From Candidatus Doudnabacteria bacterium (GTDB lineage Bacteria > Patescibacteriota > Doudnabacteria > UBA920): DNA of 64,000 bases. Below are positions 3,882 to 53,673 of the stretch, one piece after another. A program made the translations under genes and the position numbers. Within the stretch, counting starts at the first letter, position 1. Each line of letters begins with the position of its first letter. The notes beneath the pieces were generated by a model that was not told where the DNA came from, did not search any database, and saw nothing but the letters and a program-made list of their open reading frames with translations. The stretch spans positions 74,853 through 138,852 of the forward strand of contig CAWINB010000004.1 in assembly GCA_963837465.1 (NCBI GenBank), given 5' to 3'.

Positions 3882-4244
3882 TTAAATAAGCGGTAATTTC
3901 ATGGTCTCTCTTTTATTATTTTCAATCTTTAATCTCCAAAAATCGTCTTTTAATAAATGCTTCCACCTTGGGTACTGCCAACCGTGCCAAAAATCACTGT
4001 CTAAAAAAACACAAATTCTCTTTTTTCTAAATACTATATCTGGTTTCCCTCTGATTGAAGCGGTATTAATTTCGAATTTATTTTTTGTTCTGATTTTTAA
4101 TTCCGCGATAAAATCTTGTTCAAATTTAGTTTCTCTAGAACGTATTTTGGACATTAAATTTGAACGGCGCTTTTTACTTAGCTTATCAGGCGTTCTGATT
4201 TTTTTAAAATTTCTGCCCGAATAATTTTTATAAACTTTTTTCAT
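3882..4244 (-). CDS. vsr: very short patch repair endonuclease Vsr
   Basis: 'RSRETKFE...GKPDIVF...ICVFLDSDFWHG' matches the Vsr signature (RSRNMSRI...GKPD...CFWHgH). Adjacent to a C5 methyltransferase. Confidence 0.75.
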   Translation of the reverse strand: MKKVYKNYSGRNFKKIRTPDKLSKKRRSNLMSKIRSRETKFEQDFIAELKIRTKNKFEINTASIRGKPDIVFRKKRICVFLDSDFWHGWQYPRWKHLLKDDFWRLKIENNKRETMKLPLI

Positions 4245-5287
4245 TCTAAACCAGATTCAAAAATTTCAGAGGCCTTACAGTTTTCCAAATCAGAATCGGA
4301 ACTTTTATTCAGTAAACTTTTCCAAGCTTCAATCCTGTCATTACCTATATTTTTCAATTTCCAATACTCTAATAATTTGTCTTGGGGTATTAAATCAATC
4401 GTCCTGGTTACTAATTTTGCTTTTTCGAAAAGAAGAGCGAATATCTGAGGAACCATAATTTTTTTACCACTAACTTTTAATCCAACCTGTCCGCCGGCTG
4501 TAAAAAAATCCCTCAAATTATGAGTTATGGCATTATAGTCATTAAGCAAAAAGGCTGCGACTCTTTCAAACTTTGTTTTGTTATTGTTGCCAAAAATCTC
4601 TGGGAAAAAAATCATGGATTTAATAATAAAATCCGACTCCTCTTTTTCGTCAAATTTATTTAAAAACCGTACGATCGGCTGATCGTTTTTTGCCATACCT
4701 GGATCTATCCACCATAATTCTTCTCCCGGCTTTAACAATGACCTATAGTGTTCTTTGAATTTTAAAATTGGCTTTGGGTCTTTTCGCAGTGAGTCATAAT
4801 CTAAGTTTAATTTATTAAAGATAGACTGTCCTAAAGGGAGTTCCATGTCAATTTTGTAACGCGGTGAATGGGTCACGGCAACTTCATAGAGACAATCTTG
4901 ATACGGTCTGTATATAATATTAGGAGAGCCTCCCAGTTTTCCAAAAAACATATATATTCGTTCTGTCTCTTCCACCCGAGTCCCCTCCGCGACGCTGTTG
5001 CCCGTGGAAATCCATTTATCTTCGGCGGTAACTTTAACTTCTATGCCATAATATTGATTGGCTATTATGTCAGGAAAGGTCTGCTTACCTGTTTGTCTTA
5101 TAGTGCCATAAAACTTTGTACCCTTTGACGCCAAACACATCTTCGCGAAAACTATATTTTCAAAAGACACCCCATCCATTTTTATGCTGGGCGTCTTTTT
5201 TATTTCTTCCAAACACAAAATCTTAGTTTTTTCCAACAAGTTCCTGAACTCTTCTTCCGTGATTTTTTGACTCTGAATGTAAACCAT
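4241..5287 (-). CDS. putative type II restriction endonuclease (PD-ExK) of the MTase-REase-Vsr operon
   Basis: Lies between the C5-MTase and vsr; 'FPDIIANQYYGIEVKV' is a D...ExK motif. Its start is overlapped by the last 65 nt of the MTase. Confidence 0.45.
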   Translation of the reverse strand: MVYIQSQKITEEEFRNLLEKTKILCLEEIKKTPSIKMDGVSFENIVFAKMCLASKGTKFYGTIRQTGKQTFPDIIANQYYGIEVKVTAEDKWISTGNSVAEGTRVEETERIYMFFGKLGGSPNIIYRPYQDCLYEVAVTHSPRYKIDMELPLGQSIFNKLNLDYDSLRKDPKPILKFKEHYRSLLKPGEELWWIDPGMAKNDQPIVRFLNKFDEKEESDFIIKSMIFFPEIFGNNNKTKFERVAAFLLNDYNAITHNLRDFFTAGGQVGLKVSGKKIMVPQIFALLFEKAKLVTRTIDLIPQDKLLEYWKLKNIGNDRIEAWKSLLNKSSDSDLENCKASEIFESGLE

Positions 5288-6263
5288 TAAGTTTGGAATT
5301 AAGATTCCTATCTAAAAATTCCTCAATACTTTTCGCTATATGCCAAGCCAAAACCGGAGGCACAGCGTTACCTATTTGTTTATACGCGCTAGATGTTGAA
5401 GGTAAAAATTCAAAATCATCCGGGAAAGATTGAATACGCGCCGCTTCTCGAGCGGAAAGCCTTCTTTTTCCATTCCAATGGTATTCAATATTGCCATGGT
5501 GCTCTGTTCTCATTGTTGGACCAGGTTTATTAGCGGAAACCAAGTTATTACCCTGACCTTTATTCTTTTTAGCTTTGGACCAATAATGATTTAGTAAAGC
5601 TCCTTCCTCTTTTTTCTCCAAATCCCCAATCGCTTCTTTTAAAGTAACCCAGTTATTTTTATTCAATAAAGGTTTTGGGTGATCAAAAGGAGGTAGCGCG
5701 TCTTTACGAGTTCCTACTATAATAACCCTTTCTCTCTTTTGAGGAACTCCATAATCGGCTGCTAGTAAAAGCTTATAACGGACATGGTAACCCAAAACTT
5801 CAAAATCTTTTACTATAGTTTCTATAGCGTTATCCATTGTTAGCAAACCTTTAACATTTTCAGCTATAAAAACTAGTGGAGTTGTTCTCTTTACTACTTC
5901 TACCATGCTGCGATACAAAACCCCTCTTTTACCTTCAAAGCCCATTCTTTTACCAGCGTGGCTAAAATCTTGACAAGGAAAACCTCCAAGCACAACATCA
6001 ACATGCTGAGGCAGCGATCTATCAAAAATAGTTCCGGAATGCTTGTTGGCTAAAATTTCGGTGATATTGCCGCAAATAATTTCGTGCTTAAAATATTTTC
6101 TAAAACTTTCACAAGCTGATTCGTCTATATCATTAGCCCATTTTACCTCAAAATTTCTTTTGGAGTACTTTTTACCTAAAAACGTAAAACCCCCAGTGAA
6201 GCCTAAATCTAATCCTCCACAACCTGTAAAGAGCGAAGCTATAGAATATTTTTGTTTTTGCAT
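5223..6263 (-). CDS. dcm: DNA cytosine-5 methyltransferase
   Basis: Motif I 'FTGCGGLDLGF', motif IV 'GFPCQDFSHAGKR', motif VI 'ENV'. Confidence 0.85.
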   Translation of the reverse strand: MQKQKYSIASLFTGCGGLDLGFTGGFTFLGKKYSKRNFEVKWANDIDESACESFRKYFKHEIICGNITEILANKHSGTIFDRSLPQHVDVVLGGFPCQDFSHAGKRMGFEGKRGVLYRSMVEVVKRTTPLVFIAENVKGLLTMDNAIETIVKDFEVLGYHVRYKLLLAADYGVPQKRERVIIVGTRKDALPPFDHPKPLLNKNNWVTLKEAIGDLEKKEEGALLNHYWSKAKKNKGQGNNLVSANKPGPTMRTEHHGNIEYHWNGKRRLSAREAARIQSFPDDFEFLPSTSSAYKQIGNAVPPVLAWHIAKSIEEFLDRNLNSKLNGLHSESKNHGRRVQELVGKN

Positions 6264-11035: not shown

Positions 11036-14000
11036 TTATTTTTTCTTGTCTTTCTTATACTTCTTACCATCCTTCTTAGGCTCATCGGCAAATAAAGAAG
11101 CTTCAGATGCCATGGGCATCATTGCCGGCATATTGGGGACTATTATTTCCGGCTCTTCGGCGGCAGAGCTTACCGCGCCGTCTTTACCGAGAAGTTCTAC
11201 ATCCAAACAAAGCGACTGAAGTTCTTTGACCAAAACGCGGAAGCTTTCCGGAATATTCGGTTTCTTAATCGGTTCGCCTTTTACAATAGCTTCATAGGTT
11301 TTGCTTCTGCCGACCACATCGTCAGATTTAATAGTCAGCATTTCCTGCAAAGTGTGGGCAGCGCCGTAACCTTCCAAAGCCCAAACTTCCATTTCCCCAA
11401 AACGCTGGCCGCCGAACTGGGCTTTTCCGCCCAAAGGCTGCTGGGTAATTAAGCTGTACGGACCGGTGGAACGCGCGTGCATTTTGTCATCCACCAAGTG
11501 GTGAAGTTTCAAAAAGTACATAACGCCAACCGTAACTTTTTCGTCAAACGGCTCGCCGGTCTTGCCATCAAACAAAACAACTTTGCCGTCTTCGGGCACG
11601 CCGGCTTTTTTAAGTTCCGCCTTAATTTGGTCTTCGTGAATACCGTCCAGTACCGGGGTGGCAATTTTATAACCGAGCTTGTAAGCGGCCATCCCCAAAT
11701 GGGTTTCCAGAATCTGACCGAGGTTCATACGGGACACCACGCCAAGAGGATTTAAGATGATATCGACAGGAGTTCCGTCTGCCATAAACGGCAAATCTTC
11801 CAGCGGAATGACTTTGGAAATAACGCCCTTGTTGCCGTGGCGGCCGGCCATTTTGTCGCCGACCTGGATTTTACGAAGCACGGCCACCGATACCTGAATA
11901 GAGCGGATAACACCGCTGGGGAGTTTGTCGCCGGCATCGCGCGTAAACTGGCGGATGTTGACTACTTTTCCGTATTCGCCGTGCGGCAGGGTTAACGACG
12001 TGTCTTTAACGTCGCGGGATTTTTCACCAAAAATAACTCGCAGCAGTTTTTCTTCGGCCGTTAAGTCTGTTTCGCCTTTGGGCGTGATTTTTCCAACTAA
12101 AATATCACCGGCTTTAACCTGGGCGCCAACGCGGATAATGCCGTTTTCGTCCAAATCTTTTAATTTTTCATCGCCGACGTTGGGGATGTCGCGGGTAACC
12201 TGTTCGGGGCCGAGCTTGGTGTCGCGCACATCTATTTTAAAATCATCAATGTGAATGGAAGAATAGCGGTCCTGCTGAACCACGCGTTCACTAACCAAAA
12301 TAGCGTCTTCGTAGTTGCCGCCTTCCCAGGAAAGGAACGCCACCAAAACGTTCTGGCCCAAAGCCAATTCCCCGCCTTCGGTGGAAGCGCCGTCGGCTAA
12401 AACGTCGCCTTTGCTTACTTTTTGGCCGCGGTTAACACGGGCAATCTGGTTAATGGAAGTTGCTGAGTTGGTGCGCAAAAATTTCAGCAAAGGATATTCT
12501 TTCTTTTTGCCTTTTTCGCCGGCCACGATAATTTTTTCGCCGGTCACGGAAACTACGTCGCCGTCTTCCTCGGCCAAGACCACCGTGCCGCTGTCGCGCG
12601 CGCTCTTGGCTTCCATGCCGGTGCCTACCAAAGGCGCGTCCGGCTTAATGCAGGACACGGCCTGGCGTTGCATGTTGCTGCCCATTAAGGCGCGGTTGGC
12701 ATCGTCGTGTTCCAAAAAGGGAATTAAGGAAGTAGTAACGGAAATAATCTGCTTGGGGGAAACGTCCAGGGCATCTATGTCCGAAGTTTCGGAAATAGAC
12801 GGAACGGAGTGCACGCGCACCGAGGAGCGAGGCTGCACAAAGTAGCCTTTGTCGTCTATTTCAATATTGCTTTGGCCGATAATTAAATGCTCTTCTTCAA
12901 AAGCATCCATATAAACAATTTTGTCCGTGGCCCGGGCTTTAATCCGGACTTCCAAAAGCTGTTCGTTTTTAGCCAATTCTTTGGCCTGGGCCGGGCTGAT
13001 AGTTTGGCCGGCTTTGACTACAACATTACCCTTGGCATCTTTAACATCATAAAAAGCAATTTCATCCACAGAATCTTTGCCGTCATTTTTGGCGTTCTTT
13101 TTAACAAAACGGTAGGGAGTTTCTATAAAACCAAAATCATTTACGCGCGCGTAAGTGGCCAAGTGGGCTACTAGTCCAATGTTTGGCCCTTCCGGAGTGG
13201 TAATGGGACACAATCTTCCGTAGTGGGAACGGTGCACGTCGCGGACTTCAAAACCGGCGCGTTCGCGGCTTAAACCGCCGGGACCCATAGCGCTCAGTCT
13301 GCGCTTGTGCTCCAGTTCGGCTAGCGGGTTGGTCTGGTCCATAAACTGGCTAAGCTGGGAAGATGAAAAGAATTCCTGCATGGTGGCCACAACCGGACGC
13401 ACGTGGACCAGTTGGGCGGGTGTTACAGCGTCAAGATCAGTGAGAGTGGACATGCGGTCTTTGGCAATGCGGGCCATTCTCACCAAACCCACGCGGAAGC
13501 GGGCCTGGATAAGTTCACCCACGGCGCGGACGCGGCGGTTGGCCAAGTGGTCAATGTCATCGGGCGGTTCCTGGGTATTGTTTAAACGGATAACTTCGCG
13601 CACCACGGCAAGCAGATCCTCTTTGGTCAGCAGCGGAGTTTCGTTATCTTTTATGGACAGACGCTGGTTAAATTTGTAGCGGCCTACGTCTGAAAAATCA
13701 TAGCGCTCCAGATTAAAAAACATGCCGGAAATAAGGGATTTGGCATTATCTACGGTAGCCAAATCGCCTGGGCGGATTCTTTTGTAAACTTCTTTGTAGC
13801 CTTCATCACTGTTGGTGGAAGCGTCTTTTTCCAAAGTATTTTGAATGTATTTGGTGTCCGGATCGGTATCAATATCGGCAAAATTGGTTAAAATTTCTTC
13901 GTTGCTTGATAGGCCAAAAACACGCAACAGGGCGGTAATGGGAATTCTGCGTTTGCGGTCAATTTTTACGCCGATAACGCCGGCGGCATCGGTATCCAGC

Positions 14001-14551
14001 TCCAGCCAGGCGCCGCGGTTAGGGATAATTTTGGCGCCGTAGCAGTTTTTGCCGCGGATATTTTCCATGGTGAAAAACACGCCGGGAGATTTAATCAGCT
14101 GGTTAACCACCACGCGTTCCACGCCGTTGATAATAAAAGTGCCGCGCGGCGTCAGTAAAGGGAAATCCCCAAAATAAACATCCTGGGTTTTGGTTTTCCC
14201 GCTTATTTTATTGACCAGCTTGGCCGAAACGTACAAAGGAGCTTCGTAGGTGGTGTTGCGTTCGCGCGAAGTAAACTCGTCATACTTGGGTTTGTCAAAA
14301 AAATAGTCGCCAAAAAACAGCTCCAGGTTCTTGCCCGTAAAATCGCGGATAGGGTTAACTTCGCCAATAAGCGCCTTTAAGCCTTTTTCCACAAACCAGC
14401 GGTAAGAGTTCAACTGGACCTCTATTAAATTGGGCAACAGCGCGGTCTCGTGCTGCTTGGTAAAAAATTTGCGCGCGGGGAATTCTTCCACCCAGGTTTT
14501 GGTGGTAATTTCTTTTGATTTAGTGGCCATTAAGTATGAACTTTCAGCCAA
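11036..14551 (-). CDS. rpoB: DNA-directed RNA polymerase subunit beta (track start is TTG; a more likely start is the ATG 'MATKSK' at about 14530)
   Basis: 1171 aa with typical RpoB conservation throughout. Confidence 0.95.
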
Positions 14552-14635
14552 AACGCACTATTTTGGCTTAATTAAAGCAAAAACTAAACCTTGCTATGTG
14601 AGTCGGTAAGGACTTCCGTGCTTGGTCAAGTACTA

Positions 14636-14700
14636 GGCATTTTTTGAGGATGTTTGGAGATGTAGTCATACTACACCGGAAAACAGCGGAAAAAAATAAC
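14636..14700. repeat. 65-nt element copy 1: GGCATTTTTTGAGGATGTTTGGAGA + hairpin (TGTAGT-cat-ACTACA) + ...CGGAAAAAAATAAC, upstream of rpoB
   Basis: Second copy at 63929-63993. The hairpin stem differs between copies but stays paired (CGTAG-tttac-CTACG). Confidence 0.6.
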
Positions 14701-15206
14701 AAAGTAATTAAACAAGCCCTCTTTGGGGGTTTCATCAATAATATCAATATTTTTAGATAAAACACGGAAGTCCTTTATGGAATATTTTATGTTCTCTATC
14801 TTCCCGAAATCATGGATTGAGGACACAAAACATTCCCTTTTTACACGCATCCCGCTATTTTTTAATAATTGATGGGTTTTGGAAAAAAATTTACTTTATT
14901 TAAAAGCATAAATATTTTTCCAGCCAACGCAAAAAAATTTGCGGGGAACGCAAAAAGGGCCGATCCACAAAGGCTTATAGGCTTACAACATTGTGCATAT
15001 TTTGATTATACTCGTCAACCAAAACTTGTCAAGTCCCGATTCTACCGGAACAAAATCCTTAAAACCCGATATCTTTATACATCCATACTACCACACTTAC
15101 CCACAAACCTCAAACAGTTAATCCACAGGGGAATAAAAGATGGCTCTGATATTTTTTGGTTACTTTAAAATAAAGGCAATACCTTCTTTTAGTGGTGCTT
15201 ATTATT

Positions 15207-15430
15207 TACAAACACATAGAGAATTTTATATATGGATTTGAGTATTTTTTATGTATAAATCATTCACGTATCTACAAAAGTAGAAATTTTATATATGGAT
15301 TTGAGTTTTAGATTCTTATAATATTATAACATATCTACAAAAGTAGAAATTTTATATATGGATTTGAGAGTTCCTGTACGGAAAGGACTGGAATATCTAC
15401 AAAAGTAGAAATTTTATATATGGATTTGAG
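15207..15430 (-). CRISPR. CRISPR array, leader-distal segment: degenerate terminal repeat (15207-15242) plus three intact 36-nt repeats (15270-15305, 15333-15368, 15395-15430); spacers of 27, 27 and 26 nt
   Basis: Repeat on the transcribed (minus) strand is CTCAAATCCATATATAAAATTTCTACTTTTGTAGAT, the canonical Cas12a crRNA repeat 3' hairpin. Confidence 0.9.
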
Positions 15431-15443
15431 TGAACTGCTCTGA

Positions 15444-16403
15444 TTATACCGTACCACTTCGACCGTTTTTGATGAGAGGTTTTAGAGCGGTCTTGGTGTA
15501 GGCCATCGGCGGTTTGTAGCCGATGCTGCTGTGTAATCTTCTATAATTATAGTAGTTAATTTTCTTCTTTACAAACTTAATAACTTCGGTTAAATTGGTC
15601 AGCTCAGATATCTCGCTTTGCAGCTCAGTCTTAAACCTGCCAAAGAAAGATTCCTGTCCTGGATTGTCCGTTGGAGTGCCAGGCTTGGAAAAAGATATCT
15701 TGCCGTGTCCCAGTATCGCTTCCACATAACTGTAACCGGTATACTGACTGCCCCTGTCCTGATGCCAAATCATTTTCTTAAATAATCTTTTTAACAGTTT
15801 GGGACAAGGTGGGAGTCGGCTGATAGTTTTTAAAGCGCTGCAAAACGAATTTAAGACTAAAGTTTCTTCCATGTTGTCATCAATATCGTATCCGTAAACT
15901 GCTTCCCCTAAGTTGTCCTTATGTACACACAAGTAAGCTTTTCCGGTTTTGAACTTCAACTCCGTAATATCCGAAGTAACGGCCTGCAAGGGTTTGGTGA
16001 TATTAGCCTTTAAAAGTAAGTTGGCTTTATCTCCTAAAGCATTTAAAGTTTTTTGAATAAAAGTATCTTTATTCTTTTTAATATTTCTAGGTAGACTAAG
16101 GCCCCAAAGGTTGCTTAATTTAGCCACTTTATCTCGGCCAATAGTAATGCGCTTGTTATCGTTCAGCTCATAGTAAAGCCTTCTTATTCCATAACCAGAA
16201 TTATCTTTTATGACTTTGACAAAGACTGCTTTTAAATGTTTATGGGCAATTTCAAACTTTTGGGTTTTATCACAGGCGTGGTAGTAAGTGTCCTTACTGA
16301 TATTAAAGAGTTTACAGATTTGATTAATCCCAATTCCATCCTGGCCGGCAAACTTGCGACAGTATTCGGCGATGCAAAGCTTGCTTACCCCTGACTGTCT
16401 AAA
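15444..16403 (-). CDS. IS3-family transposase OrfB (integrase core), expressed as an OrfAB fusion by -1 frameshift at T TTT TTA (about 16398-16404); the track ORF 15444..16127 is the Met-initiated portion
   Basis: 'HQDRGSQYTGYSYVEAILGHGKISFSKPGTPTDNPGQESFFGRFKTE...YNYRRLHSSIGYKPP'. The -1 frame is open from the slippery heptamer into 'MAKLSNLWGL...'. Confidence 0.75.
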   Translation of the reverse strand, partial: FRQSGVSKLCIAEYCRKFAGQDGIGINQICKLFNISKDTYYHACDKTQKFEIAHKHLKAVFVKVIKDNSGYGIRRLYYELNDNKRITIGRDKVAKLSNLWGLSLPRNIKKNKDTFIQKTLNALGDKANLLLKANITKPLQAVTSDITELKFKTGKAYLCVHKDNLGEAVYGYDIDDNMEETLVLNSFCSALKTISRLPPCPKLLKRLFKKMIWHQDRGSQYTGYSYVEAILGHGKISFSKPGTPTDNPGQESFFGRFKTELQSEISELTNLTEVIKFVKKKINYYNYRRLHSSIGYKPPMAYTKTALKPLIKNGRSGTV

Positions 16404-16711
16404 AAATTTTTAAGTAAGTTAATTTCCACTTCCTTTTTTCCCAGTAAGGATTCCAGATCACGAATTTGTTGTTTTGCTTGCTCTGTAGTTTTATCTGCTT
16501 TGAGTTCAAAGATGCTGGGACCGTTGTCCAGGAAGTGCCTGCGCCAGGTGGAAATTTGGTTGGGAGCTAAGTTATGCTTCCTGGCCAGTGCTGTAACTTC
16601 CGATTGTTTAAAACTTTCCAGTACCAGGTTAAACTTAAATTGGGCTGAATGTTTAATCTTAGAATTTAATTTGCTGCTACGCTTGTAGACATATTTTTTT
16701 ACATAATTCAT
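16385..16711 (-). CDS. IS3-family transposase OrfA (HTH plus leucine zipper)
   Basis: 108 aa ending at the slippery site; typical OrfA arrangement upstream of OrfB. Confidence 0.75.
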   Translation of the reverse strand: MNYVKKYVYKRSSKLNSKIKHSAQFKFNLVLESFKQSEVTALARKHNLAPNQISTWRRHFLDNGPSIFELKADKTTEQAKQQIRDLESLLGKKEVEINLLKNFLDSQG

Positions 16712-16825
16712 AATGGTTTTAGCAGGGTTACAATTAATTGTATTTTACCCTCTAAAACCTCTCATGCATAGTGGTACGGGAAAGCCAGGACAGATCAGAG
16801 GATTACTACTGGCGCCGGGACTTTG

Positions 16826-17049
16826 ATCTACAAAAGTAGAAATTTTATATATGGATTTGAGTTTTATGGAACGGCGTACAAGCACAGATCTACAAAAGTA
16901 GAAATTTTATATATGGATTTGAGGGGGAATAACCAAGTCGCCGCATTCCATCTACAAAAGTAGAAATTTTATATATGGATTTGAGTATATTCTTTGTGGA
17001 AGATGTGGGCTACATCTACAAAAGTAGAAATTTTATATATGGATTTGAG
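16826..17049 (-). CRISPR. CRISPR array, leader-proximal segment: four intact 36-nt repeats (16826-16861, 16888-16923, 16950-16985, 17014-17049); spacers of 25 (IS-adjacent), 26, 26 and 28 nt
   Basis: Repeats identical to those of the distal segment. Leader 17050-17211 lies between the array and cas2. Confidence 0.9.
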
Positions 17050-17063
17050 TCCGAATTGTTTTA

Positions 17064-17121
17064 GTTTAAGCCAAAAAGAATGCAAATAACAAATAAATTG
17101 TTACGACTTTTTGGCTTAAAC
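17064..17121. repeat. perfect 15-bp inverted repeat in the CRISPR leader (GTTTAAGCCAAAAAG ... CTTTTTGGCTTAAAC, 28-nt spacer)
   Basis: Exact reverse-complement arms at 17064-17078 and 17107-17121. Confidence 0.6.
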
Positions 17122-17211
17122 ATAAGTGGCCAAAAAATAAAGACCAAGGTTTTCAAATCTATATTTAAACTTATACCTTTAGGTATTTTGTTTAATTTTT
17201 AAGGTACATTT

Positions 17212-17493
17212 TTATTTAAAGACTAACACATCTTTCTCTTCGTTAGCCGAATAGCCATAACGAATGACTTTTTTTTGACAGACCAGACAAACTGGAAAAA
17301 TAACAATACTATCGCTATTGGTAAACTGCTTTTTATATACCAATTCTATCTCTTTTAAAATGTTTGTCAATACGCGCGGGCTGTTCTTTATTTCAAAAAC
17401 CGAATACTGAATTCTGCGGCCAAATTTCTTTAAAAATTTGCTGAATTTTGTCCTGGTTTTGTCGTCGGCAAAATCGTAAGAAACTAAAATCAT
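17212..17493 (-). CDS. cas2: CRISPR-associated endoribonuclease Cas2
   Basis: 93 aa starting 'MILVSYDFADDKTRTKFSKFLKKFGRRIQYSVFE'; sits between cas1 and the array. Confidence 0.85.
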   Translation of the reverse strand: MILVSYDFADDKTRTKFSKFLKKFGRRIQYSVFEIKNSPRVLTNILKEIELVYKKQFTNSDSIVIFPVCLVCQKKVIRYGYSANEEKDVLVFK

Positions 17494-17494
17494 A

Positions 17495-18457
17495 TTATTG
17501 AACCTCTTTGTTTAAAATATTAAAGTCAGGAAACTCGCCGCCGCTATGCATAAGAGACCTGTAAAATTTTTGGGTGAATAAATATAAAGCCTCTTTATTG
17601 TCCATAATTGCTTCCATAAAAATTTTGCCGTACTTTTGGCTTTTTTGATAATCTAAAACATATCTTCTGCCTACAACAGAAAAATCTTTACTATCTATTT
17701 GCTTGAGGTTGTAGGATTTTATAAGTTGTTTTTCTATAATACAGCGAAATGGCTCAATGATATCGCAGGTTAGTGATTTCCGCTGGAAAAATAATTTATG
17801 ATAGACCCCTTTGTAGGTATCAAAGCCAAACAGCAATAAAAGCGAATCAATAAAGTTAAATAAAAAAGTATAGCCCATATCCAATAAAAAATTAGGGATA
17901 TCGGGTTTTACCCGCGGCATACGTCTAAGCCAGCCAATTTTCCCAAAATATTCTCCAAAAAATACTCGGCTAAAATTTCCTTCCAGTCCCAATAACTCTT
18001 CAGGATTTCTGGCATTAACGACCTGCGCTAAAAATTCTGCAATCCCAGCTTCAACGTTCAAATCCCTATCTAATAACCTAAACTGGTTTTCCATTTTATT
18101 TGCTACCAATTTTTTTGCCATCCTAAACTCTTTTTCCTCGGGCATAGTGTATTGCATTGACCTAAGCATATAATTTCCCTCTGCCCGCGCGTTAAGGGCG
18201 CCGTATAACCCAAAATTATTACCCAAAAAAAATAAGGAAACCGCCCGCTTGCGGCACTCTTTTACTAAACCAGAGGTAAAAGAAAAGTCCCCGATTACGA
18301 ATATAGCCAAAATGCGGTGGCACGAAGCCTGGTTTATAATTTTTCCCTCTTTTTCAAAAACCACGTTTTCATTTTTAAAGAACAACCGGTTTTTAGCTCC
18401 GTGTTCGGTCTGGACAAATAAAATCTGCTTGGCTTTTAAATCCGGCAAAGTTAGCAT
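17495..18457 (-). CDS. cas1: CRISPR-associated integrase Cas1
   Basis: 320 aa of typical Cas1 length and conservation, adjacent to cas2 and cas4. Confidence 0.85.
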   Translation of the reverse strand: MLTLPDLKAKQILFVQTEHGAKNRLFFKNENVVFEKEGKIINQASCHRILAIFVIGDFSFTSGLVKECRKRAVSLFFLGNNFGLYGALNARAEGNYMLRSMQYTMPEEKEFRMAKKLVANKMENQFRLLDRDLNVEAGIAEFLAQVVNARNPEELLGLEGNFSRVFFGEYFGKIGWLRRMPRVKPDIPNFLLDMGYTFLFNFIDSLLLLFGFDTYKGVYHKLFFQRKSLTCDIIEPFRCIIEKQLIKSYNLKQIDSKDFSVVGRRYVLDYQKSQKYGKIFMEAIMDNKEALYLFTQKFYRSLMHSGGEFPDFNILNKEVQ

Positions 18458-18460
18458 AAG

Positions 18461-19003
18461 TTAGTTCCAAGCTAATGGGCTGTAAATATTATTTTGACAA
18501 TGGGCGCATGAATGTTCGGTAATATCCTTGGGGCTGAAACTTCTCATTTTTTGCAACGTTTGTTCAAATTCTAAAATTTCCTCCGCGCTTGGCAAGCCAA
18601 CTTCATAACGTTTGTTATCGGAAAGGCTGTGTAAAAACATTTTTTCTACTTTATACCCCATTTCTTCCATACAAAACATTTCCGCGTAAAGCTGGTATTT
18701 GTAACCCAAATAAATGTTTTTAATTTTATTTTTGCGCTCTATTAAAGTTTTTCCGGTTTGGTCATATATATCGATCTTGCCAATCAAACCATACCTCTCG
18801 CAATATACATCTATCCCCTGAACAAATCGCTTAGCGCTGGAATAAGTCCCATCTTCTATATTTTCATGCACCAACTTCCCCGCCACCTGCGCAGTTTCGT
18901 GATATCCCCGCTGGTCAAAATTCTCATATATTGTATGCAGATATAAAGACAAAGGACAGTAAAGAAAGTCATTTATTTTGGAAATTTGTATGTAATTTTC
19001 CAT
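18461..19003 (-). CDS. cas4: CRISPR-associated Cas4 (RecB-like nuclease with Fe-S cysteines)
   Basis: 180 aa with an N-terminal 'YCP' and C-terminal 'CAHCQ' cysteines. Order is cas12a-cas4-cas1-cas2. Confidence 0.75.
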   Translation of the reverse strand: MENYIQISKINDFLYCPLSLYLHTIYENFDQRGYHETAQVAGKLVHENIEDGTYSSAKRFVQGIDVYCERYGLIGKIDIYDQTGKTLIERKNKIKNIYLGYKYQLYAEMFCMEEMGYKVEKMFLHSLSDNKRYEVGLPSAEEILEFEQTLQKMRSFSPKDITEHSCAHCQNNIYSPLAWN

Positions 19004-19010
19004 TTATTTT

Positions 19011-22000
19011 TTATTTCTGAACAAAGGAATCCCATTCTGATAAACTAACAAATAAGTCTTTATAAACCAATTTATCTGCGCCGCCTTTGGCCTTCGCGGC
19101 ATCTCTAATTTTATTAATCATATATAAACCTTTTCGAGCTATATTATAAGCTCCATTTGCGTCTCCGTTTATTATTGTTGCCAGACTAAGATTAGCATCT
19201 TTAGGATTACGGCTATCAAAACTGCAAACAGGGCATTGTATAAAATCATCATCCTTTTCAGAACTATTACGAATAGATAGCAATAGGCCAAAATAAAATA
19301 AAAAGTTTTTATAAAATTGCGCCGTCAAATTAGCATTAATTATCGCGTCTGTTATATCCCCTTTTCCACGCCAGTCAATCTTGGATTCGTCAAATAATTC
19401 AATAAACCTTTCTGTAATTTGATAGCTATTAGTAATATAACGCTTTTCTCCATTTTCAATTCTAGGGCTAGTCTTATAGCGAATAACGTCTGAATATAAA
19501 GTCCATTCGTTTTTCCCTGATGGTTTTTCATTACTGAAGTCAGCAATCTTATAAGTAAAAGCGAGCCTATTATTTTTTACCTCGTACTGGATCCGTAAAT
19601 TTTGGATTAACTCTTTTGATTTTTCAACATTTTCGAAAACAGTCTTTAGCCGCGCATCTTTACGGAAACCACAGTTTGGGCAGGTGGTAGAAGTATAAGC
19701 TGGGGCCGTATAGAATATCACACCCGTTTGTCCGGAAAGATTCTGAACACTTTGTATTGGAGAAGTTAGCTGAAAAGCTTTTAAAGGATGACCGAATTCA
19801 CCCTCTTGAGCGTGTTTAAGTACCAAAAAATTCAACTTTTTTACCAATGCCAATTCTAACTTTTGATAAACCTGTTTTTCTATTTTTGTTCTCCCGCGTT
19901 TAAACTTACTATTCAAATCCTCAAATATCACAATAGCATTATACTTTATAACTAAATCGCATAACTTTTTAACGGCGTGGGAAGCATAACCTTCTTTGAG
20001 TTCTTTGATATTTGCTATGGCCTGCCAGTCTAACCGAGCTTGTTTCCGTTGTTTTTCTCTTTCGTCTAATTTTTGGTGATAAGAAATACCATTAACTACA
20101 TTTAGACTCTGATGCTCATTTTCAATAATATTACCCTCGCCATCCAATATACAATAATAACCCAAGTGTTTTTCACCTCGGTCTATACCAATAATATTAA
20201 TCTTATTTTGTACCAACTCCTTATTAACTGCTATGTTAAAATTTTTAGGTGTAATAGCGCCACTATTTGCGTTTAATGATATGGGTAGATGAAGTAATAT
20301 TTTATCTTCCGTGTATCTTTTGTTCCCTATAACATCAATTTTAGTTTTCCTTTCTTTATCAACAACAGACTTAAGTGATTTTGGCCGGAAAAAAACTTCA
20401 GCTCCACCACTTAATTTAAAGACCAAATCGTTCAAATTTTGTTTATCAAATAAAAGTTTGAAGTATGTGGTATGCAGGTTTTCCTTACCGGATGATTTTT
20501 TAGCAAAATCCTTTGAATAAATCTCAAACAAATATAAATGTTTATCTGCCGTTTCTTTAGTTTTTTTATTTGTTCTAATATATACCCCCTGCTCTACATA
20601 AACTTGACTAACCTGTTCAAAATCAAGTTCGTAAGTATTAACCAATTCCAAATCAGCCAGTAAGTCCTTGGTGGCGACATATGTTTTACTAACAAGACTT
20701 TGCAACTCTGGGAACTTTGATATTTTAGTCAGCAGAATTTTGTTAATCCTTTCCAACAATTTTTTCTCAGACATAAGCTTCTTGTCGTCTTTGAAAGTTG
20801 AGCCAAACATGCCTTTATAACTACTTCCAAAAAGACTTGTGGTTTTGAGCTGCTTGTAGACCATTTTTTCATATCGTGCTCCTTTTTCAAATGCAGTAAA
20901 AGCTTCTGGATACTTCTGCCTTTCAAATAATCCTGGGTCATCAGAAATTCCCAGAAAGAACTTTTTATGCTTTTTGAAAATAAAACCACAAAATTGAGCC
21001 GCGCCGGCATCATTTTCAGACCAGCCATCTAATAAATTCCCTTTATCAAAATTCAACTTAACCTTTCTGGTCAAAAATATTTTTTTTGTCAAAAAATTAC
21101 GTAAAGCATCATAATATTTAAAGGCTGCCCAATTATGGTATATATCATTAAATGAATTATAAAAATTGCTTTCAATTTTTATATCTGCAATTTTCTTCTT
21201 CCCTTTTTCTAAAGCTAAATATTTTACCATACGGTATAAGCTTAAAACCGCTTCGGCATAATGCTTTACAATTTCCAAAGACTGTGGGGTTTTATTCCAC
21301 TTTTGTTTCAATAATAACCCAAGCTCTTTATTTGCTTCTTGATAAATCTTTAATAGTTGATAAAATTCACTGAGCCAAATGTTGTAAAAATTATGCAAAT
21401 GACTTTGCGTGGAATCGATTGTCTTAGTTTTAATATATTCTTCCTTAAAAAGATCTTCGTTTTTTATATAGCGTAATGTTTCCAGTGCATTGCTAATTTC
21501 CATAAAACTAACAAAATCCGGTAAATTATCTTTTATATCTTTTTTCTTTTTTTCTTCATTAACAATATTTATAACGGCTTGTTTAAAAATTTCACCATTT
21601 TTAAACCATTTATAGCTTATTGTATTAAAAGCTTGTCCGTTTACATAAATTCCCGATAAATCAAAAGGGGCTTTATCTATGAGCAACGATTTAAATAATT
21701 TTTCAATTTCTGGGATAACTTCATTATTTTCTCTTTCAAATTCGTTTAGTGTGTCTAATAAATTATCATCGTCTTCAATAATTAATCTACCAACTTCTTG
21801 GGCAGATTTCTCGCTTAGAATCTGCTTATACAAAGCCTGAAATAATGGCAATTTTTCTTCTTTGTGTTTCTGCCTATATTCATTAATTTTTTGATTCAAG
21901 CCCTTAGCTCCAACGCCGCCAGCTTCCTTATCTGCGCCAATTATTTTATTATAGACATCAATACCAGATTGCAAAAAACAGTTATTATAATAATCCAAAT

Positions 22001-22718
22001 TAAATATTTTTAAATCCTCCTCGCTAAATGCCAGATCGCCTTGTAGCTGACCTTTATAATATTTATCAAACAGCTCCTTATTTTTGGAAAAAATGGTTAA
22101 GTTTTCATCTATAATACGATTAGCAATTGCCGTATCTTCAGCGCCATCGCTATACAAATTTTCTCTGCTTTGACGAAAATTTCCCAAAGAAGTTGCAAAT
22201 TTTTTAAAAGAATCGATCAAAGCTACCGCTTCTTTATTTTTAATCTCTTGAGACTTTAAGATATCCAAAATTTCCTTTTTGAACAGAAATTTAAAGTCCG
22301 TCGAATTTTCAGCAAATTTTACACCATCGGCCGTATATTTTTCTCTCCACTTATCACCAGCGATTTTAAAATATTCAACAACCTCTCTACGTAGATTCTC
22401 TTTTTCTTTACTAAACGGATTCACTTTACCTTTTAACCCAGTTAAATTGCTACTAGTAAACAGCTCATAAAATTCCTTAAAATCCATTTCAGGGGCCATC
22501 AAGGCATCTATTACAAAACGACGATGTACTTCGTCCAAATATGGTTTTATTTTTTTATAATTTTCCGCTACTAATTTATCTTTTTCAATTATCCGGTTTT
22601 CCACCAACATTTTTAAAGTGTTTCCAACCGGCTTCAACTCAAACCTTAAAGTCTTGGAAAGGGCGTATTTTCCAGTAAATTGTTCAAAAATAGACTTTTC
22701 CTTAATTGTGTTTGGCAT
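19011..22718 (-). CDS. cas12a: Cas12a (Cpf1) type V-A effector nuclease
   Basis: 1235 aa with N-terminal 'YALSKTLRFELKPVGNTL'. RuvC-I 'IGIDRGEKHLGYYCIL', RuvC-II '...VIFEDLNSKFKRGR', RuvC-III 'DANGAYNIARKGL'. Adjacent cas4-cas1-cas2 and a Cas12a-type repeat. Confidence 0.9.
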   Translation of the reverse strand: MPNTIKEKSIFEQFTGKYALSKTLRFELKPVGNTLKMLVENRIIEKDKLVAENYKKIKPYLDEVHRRFVIDALMAPEMDFKEFYELFTSSNLTGLKGKVNPFSKEKENLRREVVEYFKIAGDKWREKYTADGVKFAENSTDFKFLFKKEILDILKSQEIKNKEAVALIDSFKKFATSLGNFRQSRENLYSDGAEDTAIANRIIDENLTIFSKNKELFDKYYKGQLQGDLAFSEEDLKIFNLDYYNNCFLQSGIDVYNKIIGADKEAGGVGAKGLNQKINEYRQKHKEEKLPLFQALYKQILSEKSAQEVGRLIIEDDDNLLDTLNEFERENNEVIPEIEKLFKSLLIDKAPFDLSGIYVNGQAFNTISYKWFKNGEIFKQAVINIVNEEKKKKDIKDNLPDFVSFMEISNALETLRYIKNEDLFKEEYIKTKTIDSTQSHLHNFYNIWLSEFYQLLKIYQEANKELGLLLKQKWNKTPQSLEIVKHYAEAVLSLYRMVKYLALEKGKKKIADIKIESNFYNSFNDIYHNWAAFKYYDALRNFLTKKIFLTRKVKLNFDKGNLLDGWSENDAGAAQFCGFIFKKHKKFFLGISDDPGLFERQKYPEAFTAFEKGARYEKMVYKQLKTTSLFGSSYKGMFGSTFKDDKKLMSEKKLLERINKILLTKISKFPELQSLVSKTYVATKDLLADLELVNTYELDFEQVSQVYVEQGVYIRTNKKTKETADKHLYLFEIYSKDFAKKSSGKENLHTTYFKLLFDKQNLNDLVFKLSGGAEVFFRPKSLKSVVDKERKTKIDVIGNKRYTEDKILLHLPISLNANSGAITPKNFNIAVNKELVQNKINIIGIDRGEKHLGYYCILDGEGNIIENEHQSLNVVNGISYHQKLDEREKQRKQARLDWQAIANIKELKEGYASHAVKKLCDLVIKYNAIVIFEDLNSKFKRGRTKIEKQVYQKLELALVKKLNFLVLKHAQEGEFGHPLKAFQLTSPIQSVQNLSGQTGVIFYTAPAYTSTTCPNCGFRKDARLKTVFENVEKSKELIQNLRIQYEVKNNRLAFTYKIADFSNEKPSGKNEWTLYSDVIRYKTSPRIENGEKRYITNSYQITERFIELFDESKIDWRGKGDITDAIINANLTAQFYKNFLFYFGLLLSIRNSSEKDDDFIQCPVCSFDSRNPKDANLSLATIINGDANGAYNIARKGLYMINKIRDAAKAKGGADKLVYKDLFVSLSEWDSFVQK

Positions 22719-22801
22719 AAGTTTTATTAGGAAAATTTAATTGTTAGGCTTATTTTAGGATAATTTCATAGTTTTTACAAATTTCGAGGCCGTTGACAAA
22801 T

Positions 22802-22830
22802 ATATTAAAACTGCTAAACTGTTTATACAA
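22802..22830 (-). promoter_or_regulatory. putative sigma70-type promoter for cas12a (TTGTAT-17-TAATAT on the minus strand)
   Basis: About 75 nt upstream of the cas12a ATG. Overlaps a plus-strand TTGACA-16-TAAACT promoter-like sequence (22793-22820). Confidence 0.4.
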
Positions 22831-22850
22831 ATGGTCACTAGGCCAACCGA

Positions 22851-22875
22851 GGCTCCCGAAAGGGAGCCGTTTTTT
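22851..22875 (+). terminator. plus-strand intrinsic terminator GGCTCCC-gaaa-GGGAGCC + T6, abutting the mazF-like stop
   Basis: Perfect 7-bp stem with a GNRA-like loop and T-run. Not terminator-like on the minus strand. Confidence 0.55.
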
Positions 22876-23269
22876 ATAGACCTAATAAACCTCCAAGCTT
22901 TTGTTTTATGGCTTGAAGCTGAGCTGGGGATATTTTTCTAACAAGTCTTCTAAACCTTTTTACGCTTACCAGCCGGAGCTGGGACAGGATGACGCTATAC
23001 AGATTTCCCTGATATTCAAGACCGTGATAATAAATACCGATTTTTTCTTTGCTTGTCATTGGCAAGACCCATGCCAACTTTGCGTTAAATTTCCTTACTA
23101 CTAAAACAGGCCTTTCATATAAATCGTTCTTTCCGTCCTGTTCATCACCCAAGTTAACTCCAATACTACACCACCAAATTTCTCTTTCATGAAAGGGTAG
23201 AGTGTCCGGAGCGATTATCTCTAAATTTTTCTTTTCTTTGTTCCAGCCGTCAAAATTTTTTTGATACAT
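22874..23269 (-). CDS. MazF/PemK-family endoribonuclease toxin-like protein (solitary)
   Basis: 'REIWWCSIGVNLGDEQDGKNDLYERPVLVV...VLPMTSK...SVILSQLRLVSVKRF' aligns with the MazF/EndoA core (GDV...GSEQ.G.RP.LV...P.TS...S.VLLDQIRTIDK.RL). No adjacent antitoxin ORF. Confidence 0.65.
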   Translation of the reverse strand: MYQKNFDGWNKEKKNLEIIAPDTLPFHEREIWWCSIGVNLGDEQDGKNDLYERPVLVVRKFNAKLAWVLPMTSKEKIGIYYHGLEYQGNLYSVILSQLRLVSVKRFRRLVRKISPAQLQAIKQKLGGLLGL

Positions 23270-23408
23270 TTATTTTATCTTGTAAGTTATCCGGGAGAAC
23301 TTATACTTACCCCTTCTTATATAGTATACGAACGTTTACCTTATGTAAAGTGCATAGCTATGGCCAATTTAACAACGGTTTTAAAAATGCTATAATTCAG
23401 CCATAGCT

Positions 23409-24420: not shown

Positions 24421-24789
24421 ATGCAAATTCAAAGTTACAAAGATTTAATAGCATGGCAAAAGTCCATAATCCTTGTGAAGATTATTTACAAGATTTGTAA
24501 AGAATTTCCTAAAATGGAGTTATATAATCTTTCCAGCCAGATGCAGCGCTCAGCGATTTCCATACCATCTAATATTGCGGAAGGCTGGGCAAGAAACCAC
24601 AAACTTGAATTCGCCCGATTTCTTTCGATTGCTTATGCATCGGCCGCAGAACTGGAAACTCAAATCATTATTGCAAAAGATCAATATCCGGCTGTTGACT
24701 ACACAGAAGCAGAAAATTTATTATTAGAAATACAAAAAATACTATTTGTTCTTATAAGAAACACCAAATCGGCTGAACAAAAATGGTAG
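24421..24789 (+). CDS. four-helix-bundle protein (23S rRNA intervening-sequence protein family), inserted between the ABC ATPase and permease genes
   Basis: 122 aa; 'YKDLIAWQKS...LSSQMQRSAISIPSNIAEGWAR' is typical of TIGR02436-like proteins. Confidence 0.8.
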   Translation: MQIQSYKDLIAWQKSIILVKIIYKICKEFPKMELYNLSSQMQRSAISIPSNIAEGWARNHKLEFARFLSIAYASAAELETQIIIAKDQYPAVDYTEAENLLLEIQKILFVLIRNTKSAEQKW

Positions 24790-53466: not shown

Positions 53467-53673
53467 TGTTTCTAAAACACAAAGCCCCGCGCCAGCATGA
53501 GCCTTACGGCTCCATGGCCTTTCGACCATGACCCAACGAAGAGTAGCTGAACACGGGGTTCAGTATTTTCGTTGGGTTTTTTCATGCCATGCCCGGGCCC
53601 TTGGGGGGCTGCGGGTTTAGGCATATTAAGTTGTTAGCCTTATTTTAGGGTAATTTTAGGTTTTTTACAAATT

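Follow-up and report, generated by a model that had tools for sequence, protein, structure and literature searches.

Organization of the locus

The window, a 64,000-nucleotide (nt) stretch of DNA from a Candidatus Doudnabacteria bacterium (contig CAWINB010000004.1, positions 74,853 to 138,852 of the forward strand), carries at positions 15207-22718, on its minus strand, a CRISPR-Cas locus in the order cas12a-cas4-cas1-cas2-leader-array. With a probability of roughly 85%, this locus can be regarded as a genuine type V-A (Cas12a) CRISPR immune system that is ordinary in kind. Overall, it is a real V-A system of a known type, and its effector is a member of a little-studied variant clade. The four cas open reading frames (ORFs) are separated by gaps of 7, 3, and 1 nt, and each product scores above the cut-off of its family model (Table 1). 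The original prediction, made from the letters of the window, had placed these four genes in a collinear row on the minus strand, followed by a 162-nt leader and an array with short spacers and a degenerate distal repeat, beside rpoB and among core genes; all of this is borne out by the coordinates given here, with rpoB at 11036-14551. Its description of the locus as complete and canonical stands in part. The cas genes are all full length, but the array is split by an insertion sequence (IS) that had gone unreported, and the repeat is canonical but the ribonuclease (RNase) center and the protospacer-adjacent motif (PAM)-interacting region of the effector are not.

The array is built on a 36-nt repeat, CTCAAATCCATATATAAAATTTCTACTTTTGTAGAT, whose seven copies are all 100% identical. 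When folded, the repeat forms the Cas12a-type 5-bp stem that had been predicted for it, UCUAC/GUAGA (-4.8 kcal/mol, z -2.8), and its 3' 19 nt make up a AAUUUCUACU-loop-GUAGAU handle. This handle matches seven times in the window against 0.03 matches expected by chance, and no further handle-like sequence is present on either strand of the window. About 60 related loci have the same handle and a near-identical repeat family, and their arrays lie downstream of cas12a and on its strand, with which the orientation of the repeats here agrees. The seven spacers, S1 to S7, measure 28, 26, 26, 25, 26, 27, and 27 nt and are all unique. An eighth, degenerate repeat closes the leader-distal end. No tracrRNA or anti-repeat was seen in an examination confined to the leader and the handle motif. 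The characterized V-A systems of Francisella novicida (Fn), Lachnospiraceae ND2006, Acidaminococcus, and Moraxella have the same gene order, a 36-nt repeat ending in AAUUUCUACU-NNN-GUAGAU, spacers of 25-28 nt, and a degenerate terminal repeat; the window differs from them in that no standalone repeat was found upstream of cas12a.

Table 1 Features of the type V-A locus, in window positions. aa, amino acids; Fn, numbering of Francisella novicida Cas12a.
Feature	Position	Strand	Evidence or remark
cas12a, 1235 aa	19011-22718	-	TIGR04330 713 bits (cut-off 300); PADLOC Cas12a 985 bits
RuvC-I motif IGIDRGE (D846 = Fn D917)	20172-20192	-	column D in 121/121 homologues
RuvC-II motif IVIFEDLN (E933 = Fn E1006)	19911-19934	-	alignment
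RuvC-III motif NGDANGAY (D1186 = Fn D1255)	19146-19169	-	alignment
Nuc motif LSIRNS (R1150 = Fn R1218)	19263-19280	-	Pfam NUC (PF18510) 72.4 bits on sub-sequence
Short WED-III linker RPKSLKSVVDKERKTKIDVIGNKRY, aa 778-802, 25 aa	20313-20387	-	no His; no equivalent of Fn H843/K852; G798 at the K869 position
Zinc ribbon, first CxxC (C1013, C1016)	19671-19682	-	weak PF07282 TNB match
Zinc ribbon, second CxxC (C1162, C1165)	19224-19235	-	Nuc domain between the pairs, 146 residues apart
cas4 (type V), 180 aa	18461-19003	-	TIGR04328 191.6 bits (cut-off 70); D..ExK and QxxxY motifs visible
cas1 (type V), 320 aa	17495-18457	-	TIGR04329 315.9 bits (cut-off 300)
cas2, 93 aa	17212-17493	-	TIGR01573 55 bits (cut-off 24.5); N-terminal D7 present
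Leader, 162 nt	17050-17211	-	directly after cas2; conserved blocks common to L082 and L084
Leader motif TTGAAAACCTTGGTCTTTATTTTTT ([TTGnAA]ACCTnnGTCT[TtAT]; 3' end TAATAT/TTATTT)	17132-17156	-	~19 nt before the hairpin in most hairpin loci
Conserved leader hairpin, 60 nt	17063-17122	-	ends 13 nt before repeat 1; model R1 61.5 bits
Leader-proximal array block	16801-17049	-	repeats 17014-17049, 16950-16985, 16888-16923, 16826-16861; spacers S1-S4
IS3-family insertion sequence, 1,367 bp	15431-16797	-	orfA 16385-16711; orfB to 15444
Leader-distal array block	15243-15430 (15207-15430 with degenerate repeat)	-	repeats 15395-15430, 15333-15368, 15270-15305; spacers S5-S7
Degenerate terminal repeat (eighth copy)	15207-15242	-	first 21 nt retained, stem-loop destroyed; leader-distal end

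A Cas12a from a little-studied clade

The 1235-residue effector had been proposed to be a Cas12a with RuvC motifs I-III, a proposal with which profiles, alignments, and structural comparison all agree. The PADLOC Cas12a profile matches it end to end (residues 9-1235), solved Cas12a structures align over residues 9-1231, and Cas12a chains in the PDB are matched with E values from 1e-103 to 6e-159. The RuvC residues D846, E933, and D1186 and the Nuc residue R1150 fall in columns that show little or no variation among 121 sequences, and the REC1 and REC2 domains are detected at 152 and 40 bits. The bridge helix is kept as well, with the segment ARLDW...IKELKEGY aligning to that of Fn and W898 invariant in the clade. 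An AlphaFold model of residues 760-1235, the WED-III/RuvC/Nuc half of the protein, has a mean predicted local distance difference test score (pLDDT) of 84.9 and a predicted template modeling (TM) score of 0.83, with pLDDT >90 in the Nuc region. When this model is searched with Foldseek, the top 50 PDB matches are all Cas12a (query-normalized TM-score 0.69-0.81), and over the modeled C-terminal part the identity to Cas12a structures is 29-38%. The RuvC D/E/D residues, the Nuc arginine, the bridge helix, and REC1/REC2 are thus held in common with the characterized V-A effectors.

Among the cluster representatives of a large protein collection, the best match to the effector is 38-39% identical. 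The exact protein is present in the public collection, where a 599-aa fragment serves as representative of its 90% cluster, hence the ceiling of 39% in the homology search; a scan of genome contigs gives a best match of 41%. Near relatives come mostly from the candidate phyla radiation (CPR), among them Moranbacteria, Woesebacteria, Peribacteria, Gracilibacteria, Dojkabacteria, and Saccharibacteria. CPR bacteria occasionally carry V-A systems, and the Parcubacteria and Peregrinibacteria Cpf1 proteins of the original 16-orthologue panel are presumably CPR members as well. By similarity, the other CPR/Patescibacteria Cas12a proteins form one clade with that of the window, and they share with it a short WED linker, a UUUU-loop repeat family, and the leader hairpin described below; they differ in being at most 41% identical and in the linker itself, which in many members reads 'DH[KR]RY' and in the sub-branch of the window has no His. 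Several homologues (P0018, P0021, P0024, and others) show W at a conserved G, as in NWDDNWAF for NGDANGAY, a pattern expected of code-25 Gracilibacteria genes (UGA = Gly) in which UGA has been read as Trp.

The clade departs from the studied enzymes first of all in the linker. In studied Cas12a, the RNase center that cuts the precursor CRISPR RNA (pre-crRNA) is made up of Fn H843, K852, and K869 (PMC9508855, PMC11127173). The linker between FYR and KRF is 41-45 residues long in characterized Cas12a and 25 residues long here, and pairwise HMMER alignments to Fn, Lb2, Mb, and ReChb place a deletion of ~16 residues that takes out the H and K positions. The triad is replaced by a short Lys/Arg-rich loop (DKERKTK...NKRY). 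Beside it, R778 and R801-Y802 are invariant; R801/Y802 correspond to Fn R872/F873, and R778 probably corresponds to As R790. Short linkers are found in ~70 of the 120 nearest homologues, many of them with 'DH[KR]RY', and the sub-branch that includes the window Cas12a has the motif (I/V)DKxRKT...[EG][NK][KR]RY and no linker His at all. Cas12a2 and Cas12a3, which have no such triad, process their own crRNAs by means of a basic loop (K784/R785 in Cas12a2; PMC13594972, PMC9849127), and a remodeled site is therefore likelier here than no site. By analogy, self-processing at a His-less basic site is the most likely route to mature crRNAs, with trimming by host RNases as the alternative.

A second departure is the zinc ribbon, whose two CxxC pairs enclose the Nuc domain. 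All four cysteines are present in 53 of 120 homologues; Fn has C/T/S/N at these positions. Set against characterized Cas12a, the window protein also shows no alignable LPK lysine for PAM reading.

A conserved hairpin in the leader

The leader contains a hairpin with a 15-16 bp stem (P1), an internal loop (UC / UUUGYAU), and a second stem (P2) of 7 bp, with a minimum free energy of -22.8 kcal/mol (z -6.8). Folded singly, 31 related leaders give the same shape, with a P1 of 12-22 bp, the internal loop UC (5')/UUUGYAU (3'), and a P2 of 7 bp, and the hexamer TTG.AT is invariant. Alignment of the raw leaders with MAFFT and RNAalifold recovers only 7 outer pairs, hence the use of a covariance model (R1), built from nine hairpin sequences, for structural alignment. 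R1 gives one sense-strand match per locus in 31 loci, each time immediately ahead of repeat 1, with no other match in 1.2 Mb, and antisense matches score ~30 bits lower. In 25 of the 31 loci, hairpin and repeat 1 are separated by exactly 13 nt. Besides the window, the hairpin loci are L002, L005-L008, L010, L011, L013, L014, L018, L020-L022, L024-L028, L031-L035, L037, L042, L047, L059, L061, L082, and L084.

Covariation was computed on a 26-sequence alignment fitted to the model, and independent single-sequence folds back the same structure. Standard pairs form in 94% of cells, compared with 73% in shuffled alignments and at most 57% in slid controls, and compensatory cells number 115, compared with 34±5 and at most 29, respectively. 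Changes on both sides have occurred in 20 of the 23 hairpin pairs. Wobble pairs are biased toward one strand, with 29 G.U/U.G against 8 A.C/C.A, and 19 of 25 sequences keep a G.U as the basal pair of P2; judged from these comparisons, the bias favors an RNA on the cas/crRNA strand.

The hairpin goes together with the shortened linker of the effector. Every one of the 35 loci with both a non-canonical (short) linker and a leader on the contig carries it (30 by model, 5 by eye), compared with none of ~34 canonical-linker loci, an association that represents one clade and not a count of independent events. A structured leader hairpin of this kind is a point of difference from canonical V-A loci, and it appears to be previously undescribed. 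Across the window, no Rfam family reaches its gathering score, and at E<=10 the leader matches only sub-threshold, implausible eukaryotic snoRNA and miRNA models; no description of it was found in the literature searched. Of 110 matches to a linear hairpin motif in IMG/VR, 80 were screened and none fits the model. Conserved RNA structures near repeat 1 are also found in type II-A and VI-B leaders (Beisel laboratory), but in those systems the leader pairs with the first repeat, whereas the window hairpin is self-contained. Since a V-A crRNA consists of repeat and then guide, no extraneous crRNA needs to be blocked at repeat 1 here.

Several roles for the hairpin were considered and rejected. 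A tracrRNA-like role or leader-repeat pairing is contradicted by duplex energies no better than those of shuffled repeats (mean z -0.2, 23 loci), a terminator by the lack of a U-tract after the hairpin, and a mobile repeat by its single copy per locus, always at the leader. Upstream of the hairpin lies a second conserved element, the leader motif of Table 1. In several canonical V-A loci, a related ACCTnnGTCTTAAT core directly precedes a TATAAT box, and the leader motif may belong to the array promoter or overlap with it.

The hairpin could instead act in DNA, as an inverted repeat bound by a protein, a cruciform that positions the integrase, or a feature overlapping the array promoter, with TTGYAT as a -35 element 29-30 nt before repeat 1. 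We consider this possible but doubtful. The strictly fixed 13-nt spacing and the invariant TTG.AT hexamer would suit such a role, and the leader does matter for integration, given that Fn Cas1-Cas2 recognizes positions -3 to -1 of the leader together with the initial bases of the first repeat (PMC13034035). However, the arms of the hairpin vary freely and their complementarity is kept, which is unlike a sequence-specific binding site, and both the wobble bias to the sense strand and the retained G.U pair speak for RNA. By inspection, moreover, no consistent -10 box is found 16-18 nt after TTGYAT. Read as an RNA, the hairpin would probably lie in the 5' region of the pre-crRNA or at the 3' end of the cas transcript, and it may serve crRNA biogenesis or stability, or provide a landmark at a fixed distance for integration.

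An insertion sequence in the array and the arrays of relatives

A ~1.4-kb element divides the array into two blocks of four repeats each, the degenerate copy included. It is an intact IS3-family element. Its terminal inverted repeats are imperfect and ~28 bp long, starting TGATCTG.../TGAACTG..., with an inner perfect inverted repeat of 16 bp. HTH_Tnp_1 and rve/rve_3 domains are found in orfA and orfB, respectively, and a -1 frameshift site (T TTT TTA, 16399-16405) joins the two; the conceptually fused OrfAB scores 203.9 bits against the NCBIfam IS3 model NF033516 (cut-off 160), covering positions 2-368 of 369. The element is oriented like the array and is the sole copy in the window, and a search for its DNA in PLSDB plasmids gave no match. 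It is flanked by a 3-bp duplication, CTC (16798-16800 and 15428-15430), one copy of which makes up the first 3 bp of repeat 5. The element therefore landed where spacer 4 meets repeat 5, spacer 4 having been 25 nt long before the insertion, and the IS-free junction would read ...CCAGTAGTAATCCTCAAATCC....

Insertion of an IS into a CRISPR array is known from IS6110 in the DR locus of Mycobacterium tuberculosis. The two cases are alike in that a transposable element splits the array, and they differ in host and in element family (here IS3 with an orfA/orfB frameshift) as well as in the insertion at a spacer-repeat boundary with a 3-bp duplication. The IS amounts to a natural experiment on array polarity: S5-S7 have been cut off from the leader and are probably expressed less, or by read-through only.

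Three metagenome contigs from JGI (L082, L083, and L084; Ga0209541/Ga0209542) share the identical 36-nt repeat, with cas genes and leader only 69-73% identical to those of the window. In these arrays, 17 and at least 40 spacers were counted, all different from those of the window, which shows that related organisms actively use this repeat family. One tandem-duplicated spacer and one 14-nt stub spacer are seen in L083/L084. Closer still is a contig of 3,978 bp in the unrelated run ERR10755945, with 99.95% identity over the C-terminal part of cas12a, cas4, cas1, cas2, and the leader. The same strain is thus present in an independent data set, which we count as a sign of an active system.

How the system may work and what weighs against it

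Following established V-A biology, Cas4-Cas1-Cas2 would add spacers at the leader-repeat junction and the leader would drive minus-strand transcription of the array. The last 19 nt of each repeat would then be bound by Cas12a as the 5' handle of the crRNA, with mature crRNAs predicted to start at AAUUUCUAC, and the single RuvC site of Cas12a, helped by Nuc, would cut PAM-flanked double-stranded DNA. The degenerate last repeat would prevent a spurious crRNA, a logic that has been set out for terminal repeats elsewhere (PMC13187072).

Several observations weigh against an ordinary, working V-A system. The RNase triad H843/K852/K869 is gone, and self-processing is accordingly a deduction from the sequence of the linker. 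The segment that should carry the PAM-reading lysine, 'LPK', cannot be aligned (aa 621-660, ~20740-20858), and no Pfam PAM-interacting domain is detected in the effector. LP[KR] is present in most clade members, its loss being common to the window Cas12a, P0001, and P0018, and to judge from the sequence the PAM may be non-canonical. The spacers, whose targets the original prediction had hoped would reveal the PAM, have no match in any of the collections searched: the first 20-22 nt of all seven gave no protospacer in IMG/VR, a set of 62 spacers (including those of the same-repeat metagenome arrays) gave none among GenBank phages and the related loci that were fetched, and no self-target was found in the window at <=6 mismatches. 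A scan of the leader with the sigma-70 consensus returned no promoter-like match. Finally, related copies may be more active than this one, which has seven spacers and an IS in its array.

Taken together, such points can be read as marks of a dying system, impaired by the IS, by a short array, and by the loss of the RNase triad and the PAM motif. The array has 7 spacers where arrays with the same repeat have 17 to at least 40, both the triad and LPK are missing, and no spacer has a detectable target. We nevertheless judge decay to be unlikely. All four cas ORFs are full length and joined by tight 1-7 nt junctions, the DNase residues are intact, and the seven repeats have stayed 100% identical. 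The short linker is a property of the clade and is also found in loci with up to 51 repeats, and the IS touches just the three terminal bases of one repeat, which it duplicates.

Far less probable is that the effector is an RNA-targeting abortive-infection enzyme related to Cas12a2 or Cas12a3 rather than a DNA-cutting Cas12a. [quoted passage not shown] The window protein resembles them in its repeat handle, its CxxC...CxxC zinc-binding cysteines, and the absence of the H/K/K triad, but their REC lobes are unrelated to its Cas12a REC domains, and the identity can be rejected on the Nuc domain (PF18510, 72 bits) enclosed by cysteine pairs 146 residues apart, the conserved bridge-helix region and its Trp, the identity of 29-38% to Cas12a structures over the modeled C-terminal part, fold matches that are all Cas12a among the top 50, and a separate search in which no non-Cas12a chain came up at E<=10 save a marginal Cas12e.

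The presence of a Cas12a locus is in itself unsurprising, as its relatives are already labeled Cas12a in public records. What stands out are the departures of the clade from the studied enzymes, the apparently undescribed RNA motif in the leader, and the IS that splits the array. A tentative reading, to which we give limited weight, is that the CPR-type V-A system is a distinct functional variant, in which a short basic loop would stand in for H-K-K, an ancestral zinc ribbon would surround Nuc, and a leader RNA that co-evolved with the effector would be required either in crRNA biogenesis or stability or in the integration of spacers next to the leader. The branch concerned is a large, uncharacterized part of Cas12a. 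Maturation of crRNAs by enzymes that have no textbook RNase residues bears on array-based multiplexing with such orthologues. The combination of zinc ribbon and Nuc raises the question of whether this branch is intermediate between TnpB-like ancestors, or Cas12a2, and studied Cas12a; further questions are how a PAM is read by a protein that has no LPK lysine and what job is done by a strongly covarying hairpin at a fixed distance from the integration site.

Host and genomic neighborhood

The host is a Patescibacteria (CPR) bacterium, and the product of the adjacent rpoB is identical to a protein on an 868,218-bp NCBI/ENA contig and 85% identical to the rpoB product of a 'Patescibacteria group bacterium'. 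The interval ~14550-23400, which is bounded by rpoB and an ABC transporter operon and takes in the cas genes and a MazF/PemK-like gene together with the array and its IS, has a GC content of 28-40%, against 46-53% in rpoB and the flanking genes (33.4% for the cas operon and 49.6% for rpoB). Because of this low GC against neighboring core genes, the locus can be viewed as a foreign island, and the composition suggests that the island was acquired horizontally. On the other side, rpoB is followed by rpoC and, beyond it, by a type II restriction-modification pair (4241-6263, minus strand) made up of a C5 cytosine methyltransferase (5223-6263) and a restriction enzyme (4241-5287). Defense genes are therefore found on both sides of the rpoBC operon.

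A few smaller features of the neighborhood were also recorded. Immediately upstream of cas12a comes the PemK/MazF-like toxin gene (22874-23269, minus strand), with a GC-rich hairpin, GGCTCCC-TTTC-GGGAGCC, after it. In the stretch that separates rpoB from the end of the array, TTGACA-16-TATAAT (15005-15032, minus strand), a perfect sigma-70 consensus, precedes by ~50 nt a terminator-like hairpin with a T-run (14938-14954, minus strand) for which no Rfam match was found; together, promoter and hairpin could give a short transcript or act as an rpoB leader or attenuator. A gene for a four-helix protein resembling 23S rRNA intervening-sequence proteins (bAvd-like; 24421-24789, plus strand) is placed between ABC ATPase and permease genes. 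Farther away, at 53499-53623 on the minus strand, the Rfam LOOT RNA (RF03000) is matched at 65.6 bits against a gathering score of 46.4, with the full model covered.

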